Below, in pieces: positions 827 through 15,613 of a stretch of 64,000 nucleotides of DNA (position 1 is the stretch's first letter; each line of letters starts with the position of its first letter). The DNA lies in the IMG/VR virus record IMGVR_UViG_3300020446_000004, positions 14,570 through 78,569 of that record. One strand, 5' to 3'. The notes below the pieces were generated by a model. That model was not told where the DNA came from. It saw only the letters and a list, made by a program, of their open reading frames with translations, and did not search any database. This DNA comes from a virus. Position numbers and translations under genes: made by a program.

Positions 827-3800
827 ATGGCAGTAGGTAGAATATCCGGACCATTATTACAAAATAATCTAGAAAGAAACGGAATTGATCTGACGTTTGC
901 AGATACAAATCCAAATTCTCCATTATTAAAATTAGACGTAACAAATAATAAAGTTATGGTGGCCGGCACCACTTCAACAGCGGATCTTCATGTACACGGT
1001 ACATTGAACGGAGTGATATTAGGCATAACATCGTCGTTCGATACTGGAGATTTAGATTTTTCTGGAAATACTATAACAGCTCTAACAGGACCAATTAATT
1101 TAGATGCTCCTGAAGCTATTGTCTTAAGTGGACTTGCTACAGATAACATACAAATTAATGATAACATTATTTCTTCTCCAAATTCAAATTCTAACATAGA
1201 TTTATTACCAAATGGAACAGGTTCTGTAGAGATTTTTAATGGTTTAGAAGTTTTTGGTAATTTACATTCCAATTCAAATATTACGGCTGACGGTAATATT
1301 ACAATAGGTAATGACAACAACGATAATATCGTTCTTAACGCTGACATTGCAACTGATTTAATTCCAGATCAAAATAACACATTCAACATCGGAGCTGACG
1401 GTAAAAAATGGAATAATCTTGAGATAGAAACTGTTGAAGCTGCAAATGTTTTTGCACAAGGTGTTACAGTTGGAACAACTAGTTTTCATATTCCCCAAGG
1501 CAATATTTTTTATGTTGCTAAAGGTGGAAATGATAGTAATGTTGGCGACAATATGTATGGACCTTTGCTAACAGTAAAACAAGCGTTGGCAAGAGCAGAT
1601 GCTAGTGTGCAAGGTCCTGTAACTATTTTTATATATCCAGGAGAATACGAAGAAATTTTTCCTTTAGAAGTACCTACTAATGTAACTGTAGCAGGCTTAG
1701 ATTTGCGAAACACAATAATAAAACCTACGTCAGCAACAAATACAAACAACTGTTTTTTAATGAATGGCGAAACAACAATTCAAAATTTGACTATAAAAGA
1801 TTTTTATAGTCCAGGGCATGCATTTAGTTTTGCTAACAACACAACCGTAACAACAAGATCACCATATATAAAAAATGTTACAGTAATCACAAAAGGAAGT
1901 GTAACAAGTGTAAGTGACCCAAGGGGATTTGATGCTGGAGATGCAGGTAAAGGAGCTTTAGTCGACGGAGCAAATGTTACAAGCACTAGTGAAGAAGCTA
2001 GTATGTTATTTCATAGTGTGACATTTATTACCCCAGGTGTAGATGCATTAACTATGACAAATGGTGTAAGAGTTGAATGGTTAAACTCTTTTACATATTT
2101 TGCAAACAGGGGGTTGTATGCAACAAATGGAAGTACAGGACATCTTTCTTCTGATGGAAGCACAACTATATTTGGAGCAGAGCTACGGTCAATAGGGTCA
2201 GCAAATGTATATGGAAATTTTGGAGCAGTTGGTGACGGATCGGGCGTGTTATTTTATTTGATACAACACAATATGGCTTACATAGGAGTAGGAAAAAATG
2301 TAACAAATGATTCTAGCCTAGTTATACAAAGCCAAGAAATAAGCAAATCAAATAGTGCAAATATATATTACCAAACTGTTGATCATAGGGGAAATTATCG
2401 TGTAGGCGATCAATTTTTAGTGAATCAAGACACTGGCGAAACAACTATAGTTATAACAGAAGGTCAAGTTGATTCTCTCAATGGTTTGAATATCACTACA
2501 AATAATAGCACTACTATTATAAATGGACAAGAAATTGTTGTAGGACAATTACTTTTAAAAGAAAACACAATTAGCAGTTCAGCAGGTAGAATAGATTTAA
2601 ACAGTGCATCAGGTCAAATTAACTTTTTAGATAACACAAATGTTACTGGAAACGTTAGTATGACTGGCAATTTTACAATAGGTGGTAGTGCAATCGGATT
2701 TGGTAATCAACCAGGAGATACAATAAATTTTAACACACCTTTTAGCCAAAATTTATTACCTGATATAAGCGGTTTATATAACTTAGGAAGTATAACAAAA
2801 ACTTGGAGCAAAGCATTTTTAAGCGAAATACAAGCTGATGATATTAATATAAAAGATAATTATATTACTACTACAGAATCAAATAGTGATTTAGAATTAC
2901 GTGCTAATGGTGCAGGTAGGATTCGTTTCGACGGAAGTACATTAGACATTGATGATCAATTAGAGGTAACAGGTGTAACTAATTTTCAGAACAATGTTTC
3001 TGGTACAGGGACTTTGACACATGTAGGAAATACTTTACAAATAGGTGATAGGTCTACAACAGCTAGTGTTACGGCAACGCAAAATTTAAGATCAGGCGGT
3101 GATCTAGTTTTAGTTGGGAATGTGTTAGATCCTGGATTTTTTTATGACAAAACTTACACGTTAACAGCAAACGGTATAACTTACACATATGGACCTACTG
3201 GCGGTCCGGGAACACCTACAGATTCTTATGAAGGTAATCATTATTCAGGAATTGCCGCTTTGAATGTACCAGGACTTGTATACGGAGTAGCACCTCCGCA
3301 GCCAGGTGGTGGTCCTGTCCCTGTGCAAATTATATATACTCCACAGGCACCAGGAGATCAATTAATATTAGCAAATACTAATGGTTGGGTACATGTGGGT
3401 TTAATGGCAGGAACTTATCCAGTCAATGCAGGAGGTAGTGCAGATTTCAAAGATATTCTTATAGATGAAAATTTTATAACTACCAAAGCTGGTAATCAAG
3501 ACTTAGATTTAAGAGCTCATAATACTTCTATTACAACAACATTAGGACCTTCATTTAGTGTAAATTCTCAAGAAGCAAACCCCAGGGGAATAACGTTTAA
3601 TAATTTTGGTACTAAGATGTTTATTGTAGGTACTTCAGGTGACGATGTAAATGAATACACTCTCTCAGTAGGATTTGATTTAACTTCTACAGTGACATTT
3701 ATTGATAGTTTTTCTGTAACACAATGTCCTAATCCAACATCAGTAAAGTTTAACACTAACGGAAGAAAAATGTTTGTTACTGGCGTAGGTAACAGCAATG

Positions 3801-5314
3801 TACATGAGTATGCATTGACATCTGGATTTGATGTATCAACTGCAAGTTTTACACAAACACTAGTTACAAACACAAGAGATAATGACAATTTTGGACTTGA
3901 TTTTAGCAGTGATGGTACTAAAATGTATATTACAGGAAATCAAAATGACAAAATATACGAATACAATTTATCTACTGCATTTGATATTTCAACTGCAACA
4001 TTTAACCAAGACCTAAATGTAAATTCAATAGATGATGAACCATTTGGAATAGAATTCAGCCCTGACGGGGACAGATTATTTATTGTTGGCACTAAAGGAA
4101 ACGGTGTTGACGAATATAGATTACAAACTGCATTTAATATTGCAACTGCTACCCATATAGGATTTGTACATACAGGCGGAAATCCTTCAGGAATACACAT
4201 TAGTCCAGACGGAACAAAAATGTTTATTGTAGGAAATTCAACTGATCAAGTTAAGGAATATTCATTGAGTGTTCCGTATAGTATCGCAACTGCTGGTACA
4301 GGGTTAGTACTTTTTGAAGACGATGTAAATATTACAAATAATTTGCAGGTAGCAAATATTACTGCAAATAATATTGTTACAAATCAAAATTTTTCATCAC
4401 AGGCTTATGCTACGAATGATATTTTAATTGAAAATAACTTTATAACTACTACAAATTCTAATTCAAATTTAGAATTGAGAGGTACAGGTACAGGACACGT
4501 TAACTTTGAAAACATAGGAGTTATAGATGAAACTATAACAACTAGACACGGAGATAGTTCATTACCTAATTTAGTTTTAACTACAGATGCAAACTTTATA
4601 ATATCTAGCACAGGATCGATACAATTACCTAAAGGCACTACTGCTGAAAGGACAGCAACAGCTGGTAGTTTAAGATTTAACAGCGAAGTGAATGCCTTTG
4701 AAGGCTACGCAACTGATAATCTTTTCTTGGGTGGTATTTTTTCCGCAGACGGACAAACAAGTGTTACAGCTGACGAAACTGCTAACAATATTTTACTTAC
4801 AGTGAATAGTGCAATAGGAGCAATAGATAGCTCAAAAATTGTAGGCGAAATAAATGGTGATGGAATTAATTTACATAGATTAGATGTAGATGACATATAC
4901 ATAGATAGTAGTACAATTAGGACTAGTGTTTCTAACAGCAATTTAGAATTAGAAAGAGATGGCTCTGGAAAAGCTGTATTTGGAGATATTAAAATAAGTT
5001 CAAATACCATATTAAATGACAGCAACGGTAAAGCATCATTTGCAGGCACTAGTGGAATATCAGGAACAGGCGGTCCAACAGGACTTGGTTCTTGGCATAA
5101 ATTTACAGGTGGTACAGGTATTGTAGTTCCTCATGGCACTAACAGCAATAGAGGAACTTTAGGACAAGTAGCTGAAATAAGATGGAATACAGAGGAATCA
5201 ATACTAGAAGTGTATGACGGAGCAGAATGGATTTCAGCGGCTGGAGACACTGCGGGTGTAGATGAAGCATTTATGACAAACTCAGCACAACTTTTTGCTC
5301 TATTATTAGGGTAA
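827..5314 (+). CDS. Large tail fibre/spike-like structural protein (paralog of 5461..9255) with inserted beta-propeller
   Basis: 1495 aa. N-terminus MAVGRISGPLL; YVAKGGND...PLLTVKQA beta-helix cap; repeated NxITTTxSNSDLELRxxGxG units; five GxxFxxDGxKMFIVG...V.EY.L blades at about 3570-4280. Confidence 0.75.
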   Translation: MAVGRISGPLLQNNLERNGIDLTFADTNPNSPLLKLDVTNNKVMVAGTTSTADLHVHGTLNGVILGITSSFDTGDLDFSGNTITALTGPINLDAPEAIVLSGLATDNIQINDNIISSPNSNSNIDLLPNGTGSVEIFNGLEVFGNLHSNSNITADGNITIGNDNNDNIVLNADIATDLIPDQNNTFNIGADGKKWNNLEIETVEAANVFAQGVTVGTTSFHIPQGNIFYVAKGGNDSNVGDNMYGPLLTVKQALARADASVQGPVTIFIYPGEYEEIFPLEVPTNVTVAGLDLRNTIIKPTSATNTNNCFLMNGETTIQNLTIKDFYSPGHAFSFANNTTVTTRSPYIKNVTVITKGSVTSVSDPRGFDAGDAGKGALVDGANVTSTSEEASMLFHSVTFITPGVDALTMTNGVRVEWLNSFTYFANRGLYATNGSTGHLSSDGSTTIFGAELRSIGSANVYGNFGAVGDGSGVLFYLIQHNMAYIGVGKNVTNDSSLVIQSQEISKSNSANIYYQTVDHRGNYRVGDQFLVNQDTGETTIVITEGQVDSLNGLNITTNNSTTIINGQEIVVGQLLLKENTISSSAGRIDLNSASGQINFLDNTNVTGNVSMTGNFTIGGSAIGFGNQPGDTINFNTPFSQNLLPDISGLYNLGSITKTWSKAFLSEIQADDINIKDNYITTTESNSDLELRANGAGRIRFDGSTLDIDDQLEVTGVTNFQNNVSGTGTLTHVGNTLQIGDRSTTASVTATQNLRSGGDLVLVGNVLDPGFFYDKTYTLTANGITYTYGPTGGPGTPTDSYEGNHYSGIAALNVPGLVYGVAPPQPGGGPVPVQIIYTPQAPGDQLILANTNGWVHVGLMAGTYPVNAGGSADFKDILIDENFITTKAGNQDLDLRAHNTSITTTLGPSFSVNSQEANPRGITFNNFGTKMFIVGTSGDDVNEYTLSVGFDLTSTVTFIDSFSVTQCPNPTSVKFNTNGRKMFVTGVGNSNVHEYALTSGFDVSTASFTQTLVTNTRDNDNFGLDFSSDGTKMYITGNQNDKIYEYNLSTAFDISTATFNQDLNVNSIDDEPFGIEFSPDGDRLFIVGTKGNGVDEYRLQTAFNIATATHIGFVHTGGNPSGIHISPDGTKMFIVGNSTDQVKEYSLSVPYSIATAGTGLVLFEDDVNITNNLQVANITANNIVTNQNFSSQAYATNDILIENNFITTTNSNSNLELRGTGTGHVNFENIGVIDETITTRHGDSSLPNLVLTTDANFIISSTGSIQLPKGTTAERTATAGSLRFNSEVNAFEGYATDNLFLGGIFSADGQTSVTADETANNILLTVNSAIGAIDSSKIVGEINGDGINLHRLDVDDIYIDSSTIRTSVSNSNLELERDGSGKAVFGDIKISSNTILNDSNGKASFAGTSGISGTGGPTGLGSWHKFTGGTGIVVPHGTNSNRGTLGQVAEIRWNTEESILEVYDGAEWISAAGDTAGVDEAFMTNSAQLFALLLG

Positions 5315-5338
5315 CTCCTAACATTTTAATAATAACGA

Positions 5339-5344
5339 TAAATA
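5339..5344 (+). promoter_or_regulatory. T4-type late promoter core TAAATA
   Basis: GATAAATACTATTAAT at 5337-5352; the same 16-mer precedes the tail tube gene (57965-57980). Confidence 0.75.
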
Positions 5345-5351
5345 CTATTAA

Positions 5352-5455
5352 TGCAGTAACAGCGACCATTGTTCTGCAGGTACAAACCGTGGTCAACCAG
5401 CGATAGAGGCATAAGTCTAGACAGGTTGGAGGCACAGGATGCCCATATTGAGGAG
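5352..5455 (+). ncRNA. Candidate structured cis-regulatory 5' leader RNA, pseudoknot-capable, family unknown
   Basis: GC-rich intergenic block. TGCAG.AACAG (5352-62) pairs with TTGTTCTGCA (5369-78); loop GACCA is complementary to TGGTC (5390-94); CAACC/GGTTG (5394-98/5424-28); GGCA-CAGGA-TGCC (5431-43); then SD GAGGAG. Confidence 0.55.
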
Positions 5456-5460
5456 AGAAG

Positions 5461-8400
5461 ATGGCTGTAGGTCGCATATCCGGTCCGCTCTTGAAGTCAA
5501 ATCTTTTGCGTAACGGCATAGATCTGGCATTTGAGACAGACCTGCTATATTTAGATGTTAATAACCAGCGTGTCGGTATTAAGAACGCAAATCCTCAATA
5601 TGAGTTAGACGTTAACGGAACAATTAGAGCAACAAATTTAATTGCTGATAACAGCATCCAAATCGATAGTATAGCTGTAAATGGTAATACAATAAGTGCA
5701 ACAACACCTACATTAAATTTAGGTACGTTAGATAATGTAGTATATCAAAATAAAGCAAGAATAGATTCTATTGACATTGAAGGCAATGTAATTAGTACTA
5801 ATGATTCTAATGCAAATTTAGAATTTAGACCAAACGGTACCGGTACTGTTGATGTTCATTCTAATATGAATGTTACAGGCAATATACATGCAACAGGTAA
5901 TATTACAGCAGACGGCGATATTGTTCTTGGTGATGCTGATACTGATAATATAGTAATCAATGCAGACTTTGCAAGTAATATTATACCAGATCAAAATAAT
6001 ACCTATAATTTAGGTAGTCCAACAAAACAATGGAATACTGCCTATGTAAATGATGTAAGAGCAACTACAATTAATACACCAAATCTAGATGTTGGCGGAG
6101 TAGATTTAACACTTAGAGCTGGCAATATAATTTATGTTGCAGAAAACGGAGATGATACACATACAGGAACACATCCTCAAGATCCGGTTGCATCTATAAC
6201 GCAAGGTTTAAGTTTAGCAACATCAGGAGATACAGTTATGGTATTTCCAGGTGCTTATACAGAAGTATTTCCTTTAACAATTCCAGTAGGTGTAACACTT
6301 AAAGGGCATGGTATTAGAACTGTTACCATACAACCTACAACAGCAACACGCTATAATGACGCTGTGCTATTAAACGGTGAAACTACAGTTGAAGATTTGA
6401 CACTAACAGGTTTTTATAGTGGCGGTAACTTTTTTACAACAATAAGTTCAGGGACAGGTACTTTTGTAGTTAATATAGGAACTACAGACCAAGCTCACAC
6501 TTACGTAAGTGGAGGCTCTGTTACTATTGGTGGAACAAGCTATAATGTGCTAGGAGCAACATATACTCATGGAACAGGAGAATTAACAGTTAATCATGGT
6601 GGAGGAGTAGATGCAGGCACAGGCGCAGATGTATTTGTGTCAGGATTACTTTTCAGTTGTAGCAGTGGAAACAAAACATATCCTAATAACGGTTATTCGT
6701 TTCGTTTTGCAACAGACTTTGAAGTAACAACTCGTTCTCCGTACATAAAAAATGTCACAGTAATTACACAAGGTAGCACAACAACAGTGGAAGATCCTAG
6801 AGGATTCAATGCCGGAGATGCTGGTAAAGGCCCTTATGTAGATGGTTCATATGCAACTACAAATTCCAAAGAAGCAAGTATGCTTTTCCATAGTGCAACA
6901 TTTATTACACCAGGCGTTGATGCTCTTACTGCGACAAATGGTGCTAGAATTGAATGGTTAAATTCATTTACGTATTTTGCAAATAGATCTTTGTATGCTT
7001 ATGACAGCAATGACGGAATCAAACGTAACGGTAAAACAAGAATTAGATTAGGCGGAGTATCGGGTACATTTGCCGCAGGAAATACTATTACATTTACCTC
7101 AACAGACAATTCTACAGTAGTAAATGTTACAGCAGAAAGTGTAGACGGCAATATTATTACTGTTGATGGAAGAAATATTAATCTTGTAGGATTTGATACA
7201 ACGCCGGCTAGTATATCTAATGGAGCAGGTGCAACAGCTACATCAATTGAAAATTTAGATTTACAAGACTTTGGCGCAGAAATAAGAATGATAGGTTCTG
7301 CAAGTGTTTATGGTAATCAAGGACTTGTTGGGGATGGTGCAGGAGTAATTGTATATGCTATTGGACAAAATTTAGCATACATAGGCAATGGTAAAGAAGT
7401 TACAAACGATCCAGGAACTGTAGACCAAGCAGACGAAGTTATAGAATTAAATGATGCAAAGGTAAGATATAATTCTGTAGATCACAAAGGTGATTTTAGA
7501 GTTGGTGATTTATTTAGAGTAAATCAGGCAGATGGCACTGTAAACTTTGTTGCAAGTGCATTAAATTTAGACTTGACATCTGGTGCCACTTTTACAACAA
7601 ACGGACAAAATACTTTTATCAACGGCGAAAGAATTGACACTGGAAACTTAAGACTTACAGGTAACACAATTTCAAGTACAGCAGGAGCAATTAATTTAGA
7701 TAGTGCAAGTGGTGTAATAAACTTACTAGACAATGTTGCCGTTACAGGAAATTTAGATGTATCAGGAGATGTTTCTATTGGAGGAAATGTAACACTAGGT
7801 GATGAAACTACTGACAGTATTGCTATTGTTGCAGGAATAAACAGTAATCTTATACCAGATGTTACTAGCACATTTAGTCTTGGTACAAATACAAACACTT
7901 GGGCAAAATTATTTGTATCTGAAATATTAGCTGACGATATAGAAATTAACACAAACTATATAACAACAACTACTTCTAATAGTGATTTAGAATTACGTGC
8001 TAATGGCACTGGTAAAATTGTTATCCCAAACAACAACGTTTTAATTAATAACACTCTTACAGTTGGTAGCACAAGCACTCTTGCTACAACAAATATCACA
8101 GGTCAATTTACTCATAATGGCAATTATTCACAAACAGGCAATTCAACAATCGTAGGTGATTTGACTGTAAGCCAAGATTTAGATATAGGCGGTGTTGCAC
8201 AATTTGAAGAAATCAAAATAGAAGATAATATTATTACAACTACTACTTCTAATAACAATTTAGAGTTACGTGCCCACGGTACAGGAAAAGTTATTATACC
8301 TAATAATAATGTGCAGGTTACTGGAAATTTAACAGTTGATGGAACATTCAATGTAAGTGATATTACTAGTACAGGAGATATTACTGCAAATAGTTTTAGC

Positions 8401-9255
8401 ACAGGTGATATCCGTATAGATGACAATTTTATAGAAACAACGAATTCTAACAGTGATTTAGAACTAAGAGCGGCTGGTACAGGAGCAATACTTGTTGAAG
8501 GATTTACATTCCAACAGAATGATATATCAACCACAGGAGACATGACACTTTCTCCTGGCAGTGAAAATGTAATTTTATCAAGCACAGGTGCTGTAAAACT
8601 TCCTACAGGCACAACTGCTCAAAGACCCACTGCTGTGTCAGGACAACTTAGATACAATAGTGAATTGAACAGATTTGAAGGATATAATGGTGCTAATTGG
8701 ATCAATATTAAAGGCGTGGAAGATCTTGATGCAAATACTAAAGTGACAGCTGAAAACACAGAAGGCGGTAACGACGATACAATTAGATTTATAGTCAATA
8801 ATGCTACTATAGTTGATGTAAATGCAACACGATTGAACGCCCCAAGAGTAACCGTAGATGATATACAGATTGACGGAAATGTGATAAGTACAATAACAAC
8901 CAACGCTGACTTACAGTTTACAGCAAATGGCACTGGTAGTGTTGTAATTGATAATTTTGCTTTCAAAGATAACACAATTACCAACACAGTAGCAGACGCT
9001 GTGACGTTGTTTGAAAAAACAGGTGCAGATGCATATTGGAAGTTTGATGGCACATATGGCTTAGTTATACCTTCAGGCGACGGAGCAACTAGACCAGTAA
9101 CGCCAGAATTAGGAATGATGAGATATAATACATTTGACGAAAGAGTTGAAATTTATGACGGAGTCAGTTTTGTTGGTGTGGCAGGTTCAAGTGCTGGTGT
9201 CAACGTGCAGGAAGCTGAAGATATAGGAATATTACAAGCTCTTATGTTTGGATAA
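5461..9255 (+). CDS. Large tail fibre/spike-like structural protein
   Basis: 1264 aa, colinear with 827..5314 (MAVGRISGPLL, TTRSPYIKNVTVIT, EASMLFHS.TFITPGVDALT, EWLNSFTYFANR); many NxITTTTSNxDLELRA.GTG repeats. Confidence 0.75.
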   Translation: MAVGRISGPLLKSNLLRNGIDLAFETDLLYLDVNNQRVGIKNANPQYELDVNGTIRATNLIADNSIQIDSIAVNGNTISATTPTLNLGTLDNVVYQNKARIDSIDIEGNVISTNDSNANLEFRPNGTGTVDVHSNMNVTGNIHATGNITADGDIVLGDADTDNIVINADFASNIIPDQNNTYNLGSPTKQWNTAYVNDVRATTINTPNLDVGGVDLTLRAGNIIYVAENGDDTHTGTHPQDPVASITQGLSLATSGDTVMVFPGAYTEVFPLTIPVGVTLKGHGIRTVTIQPTTATRYNDAVLLNGETTVEDLTLTGFYSGGNFFTTISSGTGTFVVNIGTTDQAHTYVSGGSVTIGGTSYNVLGATYTHGTGELTVNHGGGVDAGTGADVFVSGLLFSCSSGNKTYPNNGYSFRFATDFEVTTRSPYIKNVTVITQGSTTTVEDPRGFNAGDAGKGPYVDGSYATTNSKEASMLFHSATFITPGVDALTATNGARIEWLNSFTYFANRSLYAYDSNDGIKRNGKTRIRLGGVSGTFAAGNTITFTSTDNSTVVNVTAESVDGNIITVDGRNINLVGFDTTPASISNGAGATATSIENLDLQDFGAEIRMIGSASVYGNQGLVGDGAGVIVYAIGQNLAYIGNGKEVTNDPGTVDQADEVIELNDAKVRYNSVDHKGDFRVGDLFRVNQADGTVNFVASALNLDLTSGATFTTNGQNTFINGERIDTGNLRLTGNTISSTAGAINLDSASGVINLLDNVAVTGNLDVSGDVSIGGNVTLGDETTDSIAIVAGINSNLIPDVTSTFSLGTNTNTWAKLFVSEILADDIEINTNYITTTTSNSDLELRANGTGKIVIPNNNVLINNTLTVGSTSTLATTNITGQFTHNGNYSQTGNSTIVGDLTVSQDLDIGGVAQFEEIKIEDNIITTTTSNNNLELRAHGTGKVIIPNNNVQVTGNLTVDGTFNVSDITSTGDITANSFSTGDIRIDDNFIETTNSNSDLELRAAGTGAILVEGFTFQQNDISTTGDMTLSPGSENVILSSTGAVKLPTGTTAQRPTAVSGQLRYNSELNRFEGYNGANWINIKGVEDLDANTKVTAENTEGGNDDTIRFIVNNATIVDVNATRLNAPRVTVDDIQIDGNVISTITTNADLQFTANGTGSVVIDNFAFKDNTITNTVADAVTLFEKTGADAYWKFDGTYGLVIPSGDGATRPVTPELGMMRYNTFDERVEIYDGVSFVGVAGSSAGVNVQEAEDIGILQALMFG

Positions 9256-13000: not shown

Positions 13001-15613
13001 CAATTTTTAAGTGATATAAACGGTATGAGAATTATTATTACATCAGGTAAAGGAACAGGACAATACGCTTATATCACAGGTTTCAATACAGTTACTAAAG
13101 ATGCAACTGTAGCAAAGGAATCAGATGATACAGCAGGTTGGGATCATATTGTTCCAGGATCAGACTTAGTAGCAGATTTTGATTCTACAACAAATTATAG
13201 AATAGAAGCAAGGATTGAAGCTACTCATCCTGGATTTGTTGCAGTAAACGGAACATTACCAGCCGCAAGAAACTTCAGAGGAGCAACTTGGGGATACCAA
13301 ACTGTAGATTATACAAATATAGCAATTGGTAATGGAACTGGAGATACATTTGATGACGATCCAATACCTGCAAGATTTAATGTGCAAAGAAAAGGCAAAG
13401 ACTACAATTTGACTAAAACAGTTTCTGGAGCAGGATATGCAGTTGGCGATACCTTTACAATACTAGGTACTGCACTTGGCGGAGCTACACCTGCAAATGA
13501 TTGTACAATTACTGTACTCACTGTATCAGACGATAGTACAAATGCAATAGTAACGTTTTCAAGTTCTGGCACCCCAAGAGGTAAAAGATTTGTTGCTGTG
13601 TCTGATCCTAACTTTGTTGCATATTCAGACGATGGCACAACTTGGACAGAATCTAATTTATCTTACACAGGTGATTTTAGAAAAGTTGTAGCTGGACAAG
13701 ACGCATATGTTGCAATGAGTAATGCAACTAACACTGTTAGTTTTTCATATGATGGAGAGACTTGGATAACTAGAAGTTTACCTACTTCAGATAACTGGGT
13801 TGATCTTGCATTTGGAAACGGTTACTTTATAATGATTGCTGAAGGCAGTAATAATGTTGTAACCAGCCAAGATGGACTAACTTGGACTGCACAAACAATC
13901 CCTGACAGTGACGATTCTACTACAGCACAGTGGCAAAAAATTGAATACGGTGCAGGAAGATTTGTTGCTATTTCAGGAAGCGGAAATCAGTCTGCTGTAA
14001 CATCAAATGGTAGTAGCTGGACTCTATATTTAAATGCATTGCCTGCAGGTGATTATGACTTTAGCGGATTTGCATATGGAGATAATAGATTTATTGCAGT
14101 AACATTTGACGGCAAAACTTTATACTCTATTGATAGAGGACAAACATTTAAATCAGGAACAAACATTCCGCAACTTGCAGGAGTTGATTTGCATGTAAAA
14201 GATTTCAAATATTTACAAGGTGTGTTTATGGCTATAGGAGATCAAAGTGTACCTGGAACAGGAGCACCTAGCCCTGCAGCAGATGAGATTGACAGATGTG
14301 CGACCACTGAAGATGGAATTATTTGGACGGAACGTAATCTAAATAATAATGCAAGGCTTTACAGTACACTCGCAGTAGGTAATCCAAATGGCACTGGTAA
14401 ATTTATATGTATGGGAGACGGAGCAACATCTAACGCAACTGCTATTGTTACTACAGGAAAACGTGCAAAATTTAAGGCAAATGTTTTCCAGGGTTCTTTC
14501 CAAAATATTCTAATTTGGGATAGCGGAAGTGGCTATTCAGAACTTAATCCGTGTGCGTTAACAATTACAGACACAACTGTAGTTGTACCACTAGAAATAG
14601 ATATGAGATACGGCAATGGCGTATTATCTCAACCAGATTTTATTAACAGGGGAGCAGGTTATAGAAGTAGTAGTTCCACAATTACAATTACAGGAGATGG
14701 ATACGCTGATATCATATCCGAAACAAATGAAGTTGTATTTGATGGAGTAGGCACTGTTCCTGGACCAGGTGTACAAATTAGATTTTCTACATTACCTGAT
14801 TTAGATACGGAAGATCCAGATGATTTAAAATTATATACTGGAGTAAAAATAACTGATTTAGGAGATGATGGAAGTGGAAATAATACTAGAACAGTAAGAT
14901 TTACCATTAGTCCAAGATTACGTAATGAAAACAATATGCTTCATGGTACAGCAGCCACATTAAGAAGCGGGTATAGTCAATGTAGAATTACAGGACACGA
15001 TTTCCTCGATATAGGAACAGGTAATTTTGAAGAAACCAATTATCCACAAATTTATGCATCTGGAAACTTTTTTACAGCATCGCCAGAAAATGAAGTTGAA
15101 GAATTAAATGGTGGTAGAGTGTTCTATGTATCAACTGACCAAGACGGTAACTTTAGAGCTGGAGAATTATTTAGTGTCCAACAGGCGACAGGTATTGTAA
15201 CAATTAGTGCAGAATTTTTTGATCTAGATGGATTAAGTTCGTTATCATTAGGAGGTGTTAGACTAGGTGGGTCTGGTGCTGTAATTAACGAATTTAGTAC
15301 AGATGCTACATTTAGTGCAGATAGTAATAATATTGTTCCTACACAAAAAGCTATCGCTACATTCTTAGCAGATAGATTATCTGTTGGTGGTTCAGATCTT
15401 GAAACAAACGGCATTATAGCAGGTAGAGTCAAGGTAGGAACAGATACAAATGAAATAAGCATGACAGACGACTCTTATTTAAATGTTAACACTGTAGTAA
15501 AATTTGATGGCAAAGATGCAAACAATAATTTAACAGGTATACAAGGAACAATAATAAGTCAAATGTTGTTTACTCGTGAATATATATCGGAAGTTCAGGG
15601 TGGACAAAGTTAA
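10034..15613 (+). CDS. Giant virion appendage protein with carbohydrate-binding-like W...Y..GD.V.Y.G..Y.C...H repeats, a beta-helix and an Asp-box propeller
   Basis: 1859 aa. About seven N-terminal repeats resembling CBM5/12; GDELR cap; SNDFTQVLSDGIG...RAELVSVFTYY; S.DG.TW repeats; C-terminal TGHDFLDIGTG...STDQDGNFR. Confidence 0.7.
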   Translation: MAEFKLDRFRYTWRGEWQESTVYKKDDIVYNGGKSYVCVTAHTSSSNFANESARILPGSNPPQPDPYWIVMVSGKTFSGVYTQGQDYAPGELVFYQGTLHLCTIPHTATSFGEQSTYWEDFIDGIDYVGDWVSGLDYGEGALVKYGGNVYRCVKAHSAGATLEENVSTNKNINCWDMFHPGIEWKGAWATSTLYEKNDIVSFGGAIYECITTHTSAGTQISATDFQIRFTGTKFNNEWDSNTVYSIGDIVRYGGFLYSAVNTNQDSQPSVVTTLNANGDVIKEAVGGDSTKHWIILAKTNDFVGDWSLSGKYQTGDVVQRGGFLYEAVRDINLQDGDDSSATDLDPEVWLLLAKGQRWKAQWTPNTLYSQGDTVYYLGSAYTCTNEHTSSYPTAPGDFAVDLYDYWDLNVQSGRPAALTEKGDLLTYDYWRFDNYEDDSTLGDGRLGIGEQNQILSVTAEQEIFWRNRDYENQLVFVATNGKDQEGYGREWETPFRTIRHACEWIEDNFNPLVPTKVAVAAGDFYEIGPISIPAGCVVMGDELRATTIHATGPIPAYQNDYTFHTAILQRFISLSQNLVQNIPVVISTGNTTEQIRSLPAGSNDAFVFMNSQFLIYKDRIQYLIASGDTNPTMSGTNTKTTDTGLINSVAIINANKEFIVQDCFAYIKNVFPEFTGDLVRIRNDIQSFIRAMTRDLEFPGTYGTLKAADRYARAVLGSGTTDMFYCRDTTGLRNCTIEGLTGGLNPPGVYDIYQRPTGGACVSLDPGWGPADERMWIMKRSPYIQGVTNIGERCFGKVVNGALHNGGNKSMTSNDFTQVLSDGIGAHILNNARAELVSVFTYYCAVGYLAESGGIIRATNGNNSYGSFGSVSDGNDPTETPDAVTVNNRVNEALVDSAFAGGSSDELFLFQYENAGEQYTTADATIVGAGDDANIEYTDFRDGGVFEPRLINTKGSGTEGGSGFKVEANSAQITVDAASTIRLNANTPTQFLSDINGMRIIITSGKGTGQYAYITGFNTVTKDATVAKESDDTAGWDHIVPGSDLVADFDSTTNYRIEARIEATHPGFVAVNGTLPAARNFRGATWGYQTVDYTNIAIGNGTGDTFDDDPIPARFNVQRKGKDYNLTKTVSGAGYAVGDTFTILGTALGGATPANDCTITVLTVSDDSTNAIVTFSSSGTPRGKRFVAVSDPNFVAYSDDGTTWTESNLSYTGDFRKVVAGQDAYVAMSNATNTVSFSYDGETWITRSLPTSDNWVDLAFGNGYFIMIAEGSNNVVTSQDGLTWTAQTIPDSDDSTTAQWQKIEYGAGRFVAISGSGNQSAVTSNGSSWTLYLNALPAGDYDFSGFAYGDNRFIAVTFDGKTLYSIDRGQTFKSGTNIPQLAGVDLHVKDFKYLQGVFMAIGDQSVPGTGAPSPAADEIDRCATTEDGIIWTERNLNNNARLYSTLAVGNPNGTGKFICMGDGATSNATAIVTTGKRAKFKANVFQGSFQNILIWDSGSGYSELNPCALTITDTTVVVPLEIDMRYGNGVLSQPDFINRGAGYRSSSSTITITGDGYADIISETNEVVFDGVGTVPGPGVQIRFSTLPDLDTEDPDDLKLYTGVKITDLGDDGSGNNTRTVRFTISPRLRNENNMLHGTAATLRSGYSQCRITGHDFLDIGTGNFEETNYPQIYASGNFFTASPENEVEELNGGRVFYVSTDQDGNFRAGELFSVQQATGIVTISAEFFDLDGLSSLSLGGVRLGGSGAVINEFSTDATFSADSNNIVPTQKAIATFLADRLSVGGSDLETNGIIAGRVKVGTDTNEISMTDDSYLNVNTVVKFDGKDANNNLTGIQGTIISQMLFTREYISEVQGGQS

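Follow-up and report, generated by a model that had tools for sequence, protein, structure and literature searches.

A covarying, pseudoknotted leader RNA that extends into a baseplate/fibre-like gene of giant marine phages and may control its translation

In the rpsO (S15) operator (RF00114), an upstream loop pairs just past the start codon, the Shine–Dalgarno (SD) sequence and AUG lie in the connecting strand of a pseudoknot, and binding of the protein keeps the 30S subunit trapped. Close to its 5′ end, the gene 32 mRNA leader of phage T4 folds into an H-type pseudoknot that serves autogenous translational control, and the SAM-II, preQ1-II, and fluoride aptamers are compact H-type pseudoknots with invariant loop or junction nucleotides, adjacent to the ribosome-binding site (RBS). 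To our knowledge, phage operators described so far serve early or replication genes, and T4-type phages offer hardly any known case of a structured leader that controls a late structural gene. Here, we describe a candidate for such a leader in a stretch of 64,000 nucleotides (nt) of IMG/VR viral record IMGVR_UViG_3300020446_000004 (positions 14,570 to 78,569), which we refer to as the window; the full record, with a length of 78.6 kb and a CheckV completeness of 22%, comes from an uncultured marine giant phage. The element is a predicted RNA of about 190 nt that begins shortly after a late-promoter-like motif, lies in the gap ahead of open reading frame (ORF) 5461, and continues into the coding sequence (CDS) of this structural gene. 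It is conserved and heavily covarying in hundreds of related phages; the original prediction, made from the window alone, had named covariation in homologous leaders as its test. The parts of the element and of its immediate setting in the window are listed here.

5337–5346, + strand: late-promoter-like motif GATAAATACT, which resembles the T4-type late promoter TATAAATA
5352–5378, + strand: P1, the 5′-terminal hairpin, with stems 5352-5356/5374-5378 and 5358-5362/5369-5373 and loop CGACCA at 5363-5368
5383–5393, + strand: linker CAAAC, the 5′ strand of S1 (CGT, 5388-5390) and loop L1 (GGT, 5391-5393), all nearly invariant columns
5388–5402, + strand: S1, a pseudoknot stem of 3 base pairs (5388-5402, 5389-5401, 5390-5400)
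5394–5398 with 5424–5428, + strand: P2, which encloses a conserved GCGA and the optional P3
5407–5410 with 5415–5418, + strand: P3, an optional hairpin, absent in short-form leaders and covarying where present
5431–5434 with 5440–5443, + strand: P4 hairpin, GGCA with TGCC, loop CAGGA; 4 of 4 pairs change on both sides
5450–5463, + strand: SD sequence GAGGAG (5450-5455) and start codon (5461-5463)
5461–9255, + strand: the putatively regulated gene, for a baseplate-wedge/fibre-like structural protein of 1264 amino acids (aa), a paralog of ORF 827-5314
5470–5475, + strand: codons 4-5 (GGT CGC), reverse complement of GCGACC at 5362-5367 and proposed partner of the P1 loop
5483–5541, + strand: P5, an imperfect CDS hairpin over codons 8-27, with 5483-5487/5537-5541, 5488-5490/5533-5535, and 5493-5496/5528-5531

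The relatives used throughout are IMG/VR loci fetched with the N-terminal 400 residues of the ORF 5461 protein, and the L-numbers given below are their locus labels. In virtually every fetched locus, the gap ahead of the homologue is 120–157 nt long and GC-richer than its surroundings. When the relatives are aligned, the promoter motif, in which ATAAATA is invariant in every member, is followed by near-invariant blocks that are parted by stems changing in a compensatory manner. As leader length varies, RNAalifold did not recover P1 from the raw MAFFT alignment; a covariance model (seed) was built from ten members, and the RNA was aligned again with it. Across 87 distinct sequences, 94% of the cells in the predicted pairs are paired and both sides change in 23 of the 27 pairs; values as high for pairing and covariation appeared in 0 of 500 shuffles, and partners slid by 1–3 columns reached 36–45% pairing. 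The predicted helices P1, P2, P3, and P4 are backed by this covariation, far above chance. All 51 first relatives have P1, which mostly starts 7 nt past the promoter motif though its sequence varies, with 10 of 10 pairs changing on both sides. P2, which is also seen in the plain MAFFT alignment, has two-sided changes in 5 of 5 pairs and pairing in 96.9% of cells; P4 reads GGGA/UCCC in most relatives and GGCA/UGCC in the clade of the window. The third pair of P2 (5396/5426 in the window) is A.C in about ten members (UAACC with GGCUA) and A-U or G-C elsewhere; the A.C might reflect a protonated wobble or else a mismatch that is tolerated.

The stem S1 was spotted by eye and was absent from the alignment model, and for this reason it serves as an unbiased test of the fold. 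It is 100% paired in the 87 distinct sequences: the first pair is UA in 69, AU in 10, and CG in 8 of them and unpaired in 0, the second is an invariant G-C, and the third is U.G in 79, C-G in 6, and U-A in 2. Since the loop of S1 holds the 5′ strand of P2, the two together would make a true H-type pseudoknot. The loop L1 (GGU) is retained even in members that have no P1 or no GACC loop. Two further pairings were considered and set aside, namely G46:N54 as a fourth pair of S1, which is paired in 52% only, and a second pseudoknot between the linker CUGU and an ACAG in the P4 loop, which shows a C.A in the clade of the window and loses its partner in leaders where P4 is replaced (type 2, below). 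The frequent G.U pairs, such as the 79 of 87 in S1, would be A.C on the opposite strand, and so it is the sense transcript that folds.

Several of the pairings first proposed from the window reappear in this fold. The hairpin at 5352-5378, expected near the predicted start site, is P1 and covaries in relatives; CAACC/GGTTG (5394-98/5424-28) and GGCA/TGCC (5431-34/5440-43) are P2 and P4 and covary too. The competition that the original prediction had built on the latter two was mostly mistaken, as a TGG/CCA pairing is unsupported, and GGCAT at 5408-12, the alternative partner of ATGCC, is not conserved (G5409 is an A in the nearest relatives). An H-type pseudoknot between the P1 loop GACCA and TGGTC (5390-94) had also been proposed. 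The two segments are complementary, yet they do not co-vary in either direction: GGU at 5391-93 stays fixed in loci that have no P1 (L117, L125), that lack the loop motif (L178, L206, L281, L249), or whose loop is GUCC (L189, L111), and the loop is unchanged in loci where GGU is altered (L029, L044, L052, L123). Three components that had gone unflagged are S1 (5388-90/5400-02), the loop partner at 5470-74, and the CDS hairpin.

A search of the window with the covariance model returns exactly one copy, at 5345-5466, with 99.7 bits. There is likewise one copy per related locus, one in the whole of the window's own record, and one in each of five large records including a complete genome of 357.6 kb, and at least 200 IMG/VR contigs carry one checked copy each. 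A scan of IMG/VR with the RNA core only gave at least 120 matches, and all 120 of those listed sit 12–19 nt upstream of a start codon, with the gene that follows opening M(S)A[VIL]GRISG in every case. Behind the shared leader, the proteins (L082-L201) range from about 350 to 2108 aa in length. The leader and the first ~30 codons act like an unchanging head to which different bodies can be attached, which is expected of fibre or baseplate genes that are modular. The same pattern of a constant leader and N-terminus ahead of a rest that varies this much is that of a module junction, and it could be read as a DNA-level element or as conservation with no RNA function, for example a recombination boundary at which fibres are swapped or a mosaic segment that has spread recently. 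We consider this highly improbable, as the compensatory changes in five helices, the strand-specific G.U pairs, and a mean column identity of the leader down to about 68% point to long structural selection.

A protein-coding explanation, either by the minus-strand ORF 5271-5519 (82 aa), which appears in the mechanical list of ORFs, or by an upstream peptide, is one to which we give next to no credence. Leader lengths span 69–149 nt and show no preference modulo 3 (65/49/45), there is an in-frame TGA at 5449-5451, and a minus-strand stop-free run of at least 80 aa survives in 11% of 159 relatives. The minus-strand ORF is thus unconserved in relatives and a by-product of the GC-rich stretch.

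The leader also exists in variant forms. A search of IMG/VR with a profile of the N-terminus gave at least 570 relatives of the gene, and among the best 78 with enough flank, 61 have the leader as in the window (type 1) and 17 have a second form (type 2, as in L230, L253, L259, L265, L267, L277-L283, L285, L288, and L289, with ATG at 301 in each). Type-2 leaders retain P1, S1, and P2 (GGUAAACC...GGUUA), and the linker GAG and P4 are swapped for CCGUG-AAA-CACGG, a hairpin that itself covaries (CGGUG/CACCG in L285). Given this replacement of the P4 region, the near-invariant GGGACAGGAUCCCC of type 1 is specific to its type and not essential. A sub-family (L084, L114, L173, L176, L195, L200, L229, L231, L247, L250, L252, L257, L269, and L276) has an additional hairpin, whose loop is purine-rich and GGAGAGA-like, inserted in P1; these loci retain AAGACCA on the 5′ side and have GTG starts and a shorter AGGAG spacer. 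Two loci, L117 and L125, have a 69-nt leader that lacks P1 and keeps the pseudoknot, P4, and GGUCGC, from which it follows that the pseudoknot core can exist without the 5′ hairpin. A query for relatives with one divergent member protein matched only itself. Copies of the RNA were also seen in contigs of bacterial metagenome-assembled genomes, namely L293 and L298 (Neomarinimicrobiota, 335 kb and 153 kb), L294, L297, and L299, and the bins concerned are assigned to Neomarinimicrobiota, Dehalococcoidia, Chitinophagales, and Crocinitomicaceae. These are most likely giant-phage contigs that were binned with cells, and they are no evidence of a host.

The P1 loop most likely has its partner inside the gene, where its GACC would pair with the GGUCG of codons 4-5. 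GACC or a wobble-compatible GACU, GGCC, or GAUC is found in the loop of about 85 of 109 unique leaders. The only clade with a GUCC loop (L189, L111) has GGA as codon 4, that is, GGAC, a compensatory double transversion that keeps the pairing. GGUCG is lost in four of the seven leader-bearing clades that lack a GACC-type loop and in none of about 150 members with the loop motif; the codons found in its place are GGG CGU (L178, L203), GGG CGC (L206, L210), GGA AGA (L281), and GGU AGA (L312, L316). Members of the family with AGR at codon 5 are mostly leaderless (28 of 31), and the three that do have a leader all lack the GACC loop, as predicted beforehand. The 28 leaderless genes of the AGR type, among L300-L340, have leaders of 16–20 nt and use AT-rich codons for the same N-terminal residues. 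The median energy of the loop-to-codon duplex is −8.9 kcal/mol, versus −1.6 for other 12-mers of the CDS and −3.8 for shuffled loops. A helix stretched to the third base of codon 5 showed no covariation.

Selection on the sequence past the start codon is visible in the choice of synonymous codons. Among 105 unique starts, Gly4 is GGT in 103, Gly8 is GGT in 98, Pro9 is CCG in 87, and Leu10 is CTC in 89, and Arg5 is never AGR; Gly19 and Leu15 use all of their codons. The paralog, ORF 827, spells the same residues GGT AGA and GGA CCA TTA TTA, which is AT-rich, and this confirms the earlier remark that the first codons of ORF 5461 are the GC-richer of the two. A mutual-information scan singled out nt +28 (position 1 of Leu10) with nt +75 (position 3 of Glu25), which are C:G in 117, U:A in 17, U:G in 1, and another combination in 5 sequences, with the changes spread over several clades and several leader types, including the close pair L215/L216. 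The two positions are part of the predicted hairpin P5, which accounts for the low-entropy synonymous codons 8-12, 24, 25, and 27 and is also present in the minimum-energy fold of the window's own sequence; RNAalifold run from −30 to +120 found no local CDS hairpin. The synonymous constraint and the covariation of +28/+75, which bear out the suggestion that constraint reaches into the CDS, extend the element to about 5350-5541, or ~190 nt. It follows that what looks like conservation of the protein at the N-terminus of this gene family is partly conservation of RNA. The link between the conserved N-terminus and the RNA is in turn confounded, as the first 27 codons belong to the RNA structure.

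The genes around the leader form a T4-type structural module of tail sheath, tube, baseplate, and fibre proteins. ORF 5461-9255 falls in PHROG 13163 and 32294, annotated as “baseplate wedge subunit”. It and ORF 827-5314 are paralogous giant proteins of the baseplate-wedge kind, are about 41–49% identical over long aligned blocks, and have the N-terminus MAVGRISGPLL in common. The closest cultured relatives of ORF 5461 are cyanophage gp7 proteins, which are 36–49% identical over part of the query (tblastn); its protein had no useful match in Pfam or PDB, and blastn of the leader region against cultured phages gave no match. As first noted, the gap between the two paralogs is long (5315-5460, 146 nt) and GC-rich, with a GC content of about 0.50 over 5351-5500 versus about 0.35 in the flanks. 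The tandem arrangement of a leaderless and a leader-bearing paralog seems to be the usual one. ORF 827 has its own late-promoter motif (within 802-826 of the window) and a leader of 18 nt. The motif ATAAATAYT, putatively a promoter and as expected for T4-type late units, stands ahead of ORFs 827, 52836, 57994, and 58715 and ahead of the leader. Among the five late-promoter-like sites on the + strand of the window, the ATAAATACT at 5338 is the sole one that lies 123 nt from its ORF, and the other four are 12–28 nt ahead of ORF starts. From the geometry of T4 late promoters, we infer that transcription starts near 5350 and that P1 thus begins 1–2 nt from the 5′ end.

A hairpin at this place has a simple potential role, since 5′-terminal stem-loops stabilise bacterial and T4 mRNAs. 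The element could be a constitutive stabilising 5′ domain that guards a long late mRNA (at least 3.8 kb) from RNase E or RNase J, involving no switching and no direct effect on initiation. The position of P1, at a fixed 7 nt past the promoter motif and 1–2 nt from the inferred 5′ end with its sequence free to vary, is what one would expect of such a domain, as are an SD that is always unpaired and an alignment in which no alternative fold was found. A simple hairpin would do for this purpose, however, which leaves the invariant junction nucleotides of the pseudoknot and the selection of codons 4-5 to match the P1 loop unexplained. It is also unexplained why this should be the sole late gene with the element in a 357-kb genome, and L117 and L125 keep the pseudoknot without P1. 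We regard stabilisation alone as possible but unlikely.

The reading we prefer, with a confidence that is about evenly balanced, is that the ~190-nt RNA acts in cis to gate translation initiation of ORF 5461 and can be opened or locked by a trans factor. The transcript would start 1–2 nt ahead of P1, and the 5′ end of the mRNA and the initiation region would be tied into one compact fold, in which the P1 loop meets nt +10 to +14 within the footprint of the 30S subunit. As this pairing would lie within a stretch that the 30S subunit must occupy, it would gate initiation on an otherwise strong RBS, whose SD (GAGGAG, with a 5-nt spacer) would be left open between P4 and P5. The balance would be shifted by a trans factor, for which the candidates are the ORF 5461 protein in unassembled form and other proteins of phage or host, with a small molecule as a less likely one, and the net effect would be to set the amount or timing of the ORF 5461 protein relative to its leaderless paralog. 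The layout is one expected of a protein-binding translational operator: P4 ends 17 nt before the ATG, the loop would pair at +10 to +14, and P5 starts at +23. The original prediction of a cis-regulatory RNA or switch stands insofar as the leader is structured, pseudoknotted, and predicted to act in cis; its further suggestion, that the RNA controls the amount or choice of fibre, is still conjecture.

Several observations weigh against translational gating. For the SD, whose AGGAG is conserved 5–7 nt ahead of the ATG or GTG of every member, the alignments of relatives reveal no conserved partner to pair with (SD or spacer is only weakly associated with codons 10-11), and no mutually exclusive alternative fold is backed by covariation; for these two reasons, a true switch is conjecture. 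The loop-to-codon pairing is supported, less firmly than the helices of the leader, by one compensatory clade and a correlated loss, and L249, L266, and L117/L125 keep GGUCG in spite of a missing loop motif. P5 has one covarying pair and 84% of its cells paired, and because just one pair covaries, its support is moderate. The folding energy of the window does not stand out from shuffled sequence (z = −0.03 for 5315-5475 and −0.66 for 5350-5545), and with a fold no more stable than shuffles, the element would have been invisible from the window sequence alone. Public RNA libraries yielded only Logan contigs of relatives, at 85–95% likeness, which show neither start site nor level. Finally, a weaker SD is a simpler way to lower translation, so that the purpose of such an elaborate fold is unexplained.

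The element could instead be a riboswitch, in which binding of a small molecule or ion to the pseudoknot core would signal the state of the host and alter access to the initiation region. A compact core with invariant junctions, variable or optional peripheral stems, and an H-type pseudoknot in a 5′ untranslated region (5′-UTR) are typical of aptamers, and the leader is indeed a conserved, covarying, structured 5′-UTR domain. Against this, the RNA is tied to one structural gene family (120 of the 120 matches listed) and shows no link with genes for metabolism or transport, type-2 leaders have exchanged P4 altogether, and none of 4227 Rfam models matched. No expression platform with mutually exclusive pairings was found, nor was a terminator in the leader; the pairing of the P1 loop with codons 4-5 could itself be the platform, for which no competing partner is supported. 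Taken together, we find a riboswitch rather improbable. A related and equally doubtful extension is that giant marine phages have a new class of allosteric translational switch in which a signal bound to the invariant pseudoknot core frees or locks the P1 loop with respect to codons 4-5, so that output of a baseplate/fibre protein on the receptor side would be tuned to the state of the host. The signal could be a host-state metabolite, an alarmone, or the ACCA 3′ end of an uncharged tRNA; the last is conceivable because the invariant UGGU resembles the site that recognizes the tRNA end in T-boxes, and the ACCA of the P1 loop mimics a tRNA end.

Searches of known RNA families bear on these alternatives as well as on catalysis. 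With Rfam 15, the region 4800–6000 of the window gave, at E up to 10, five chance-level matches that did not exceed 20 bits and did not overlap the element on the + strand, and twelve representative loci of both leader types gave no match at E up to 1. These Infernal-type model searches agree with the original prediction, which had recognised neither a riboswitch nor a ribozyme in the sequence. A self-cleaving ribozyme or processing site, which would trim the 5′ end or separate the cistron from transcripts reading through from the upstream paralog, has in its favor that conserved junctions lie beside freely varying stems, that pseudoknots are present, and that small ribozymes are common in phages. 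Read-through transcripts are also likely, with just 23 nt between the end of the upstream gene and the promoter. Nevertheless, no Rfam ribozyme model matched even at E up to 10, including the hammerhead, twister, twister-sister, pistol, hatchet, HDV-like, hairpin, and glmS consensus. Trimming of the 5′ end would be needless given that the element has its own promoter directly ahead of it, and a constraint that reaches into codons fits control of initiation better; a ribozyme here is very unlikely.

The element is abundant and strongly covarying, its predicted fold has more than one pseudoknot, and synonymous codon usage in the first 27 codons of a giant virion protein bears its mark. It gives structural and mechanistic work a new and clean RNA family, with a natural paired control in the form of the same N-terminus with and without the leader in one genome. 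It also offers a testable route to the question of how giant marine phages strike a balance, or make a choice, between baseplate/fibre paralogs that probably bear on host recognition.

Full-text searching of the literature found no description of the leader motif. A 2023 survey of IMG/VR intergenic regions reported 8,495 unnamed candidate structured RNAs, the DNAVirus_N set, which rest, like the element described here, on IMG/VR data and on intergenic conservation with covariation (PMC10690425). Its text mentions no motif of a baseplate or tail gene (PMC10690425), and the leader part of our element may well be among the 8,495 candidates. As the survey used intergenic regions only (PMC10690425), a pairing into the CDS would escape it. 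According to the same source, candidate gp32 leaders in IMG/VR are likewise absent from Rfam (PMC10690425).

Compared with the aptamers introduced above, the leader has a similarly compact, RBS-adjacent pseudoknot with invariant junctions, and it differs from SAM-II, preQ1-II, and fluoride aptamers in having no model match and no association with a metabolic gene. The T4 gene 32 leader is alike in its H-type pseudoknot close to the 5′ end of the mRNA, and control of the downstream gene at the level of translation is what we propose for the leader described here as well. The gene controlled is different, since gene 32 encodes a single-stranded DNA-binding protein and is transcribed from an early/middle promoter, whereas ORF 5461 is a late structural gene with a late promoter. 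The marine phage leader also has no long unstructured A/U tract between pseudoknot and RBS, it has extra hairpins and the predicted pairing into the CDS, and autoregulation is conjecture in its case. The arrangement in rpsO, with an upstream loop that pairs just past the start codon and the SD and AUG in the connecting strand, is also the one predicted here. In contrast to that operator, to which it has no likeness in sequence or model, the phage leader is much larger, has a second, separate H-type pseudoknot, and precedes a phage structural gene, and the RF00114 model matches only on the opposite strand (E 2.9, 13.7 bits versus a threshold of 39.5 bits). We claim membership in neither family; the predicted geometry comes closest to that of the rpsO/S15 operator, and the phage system nearest to it in spirit is the T4 gene 32 leader.

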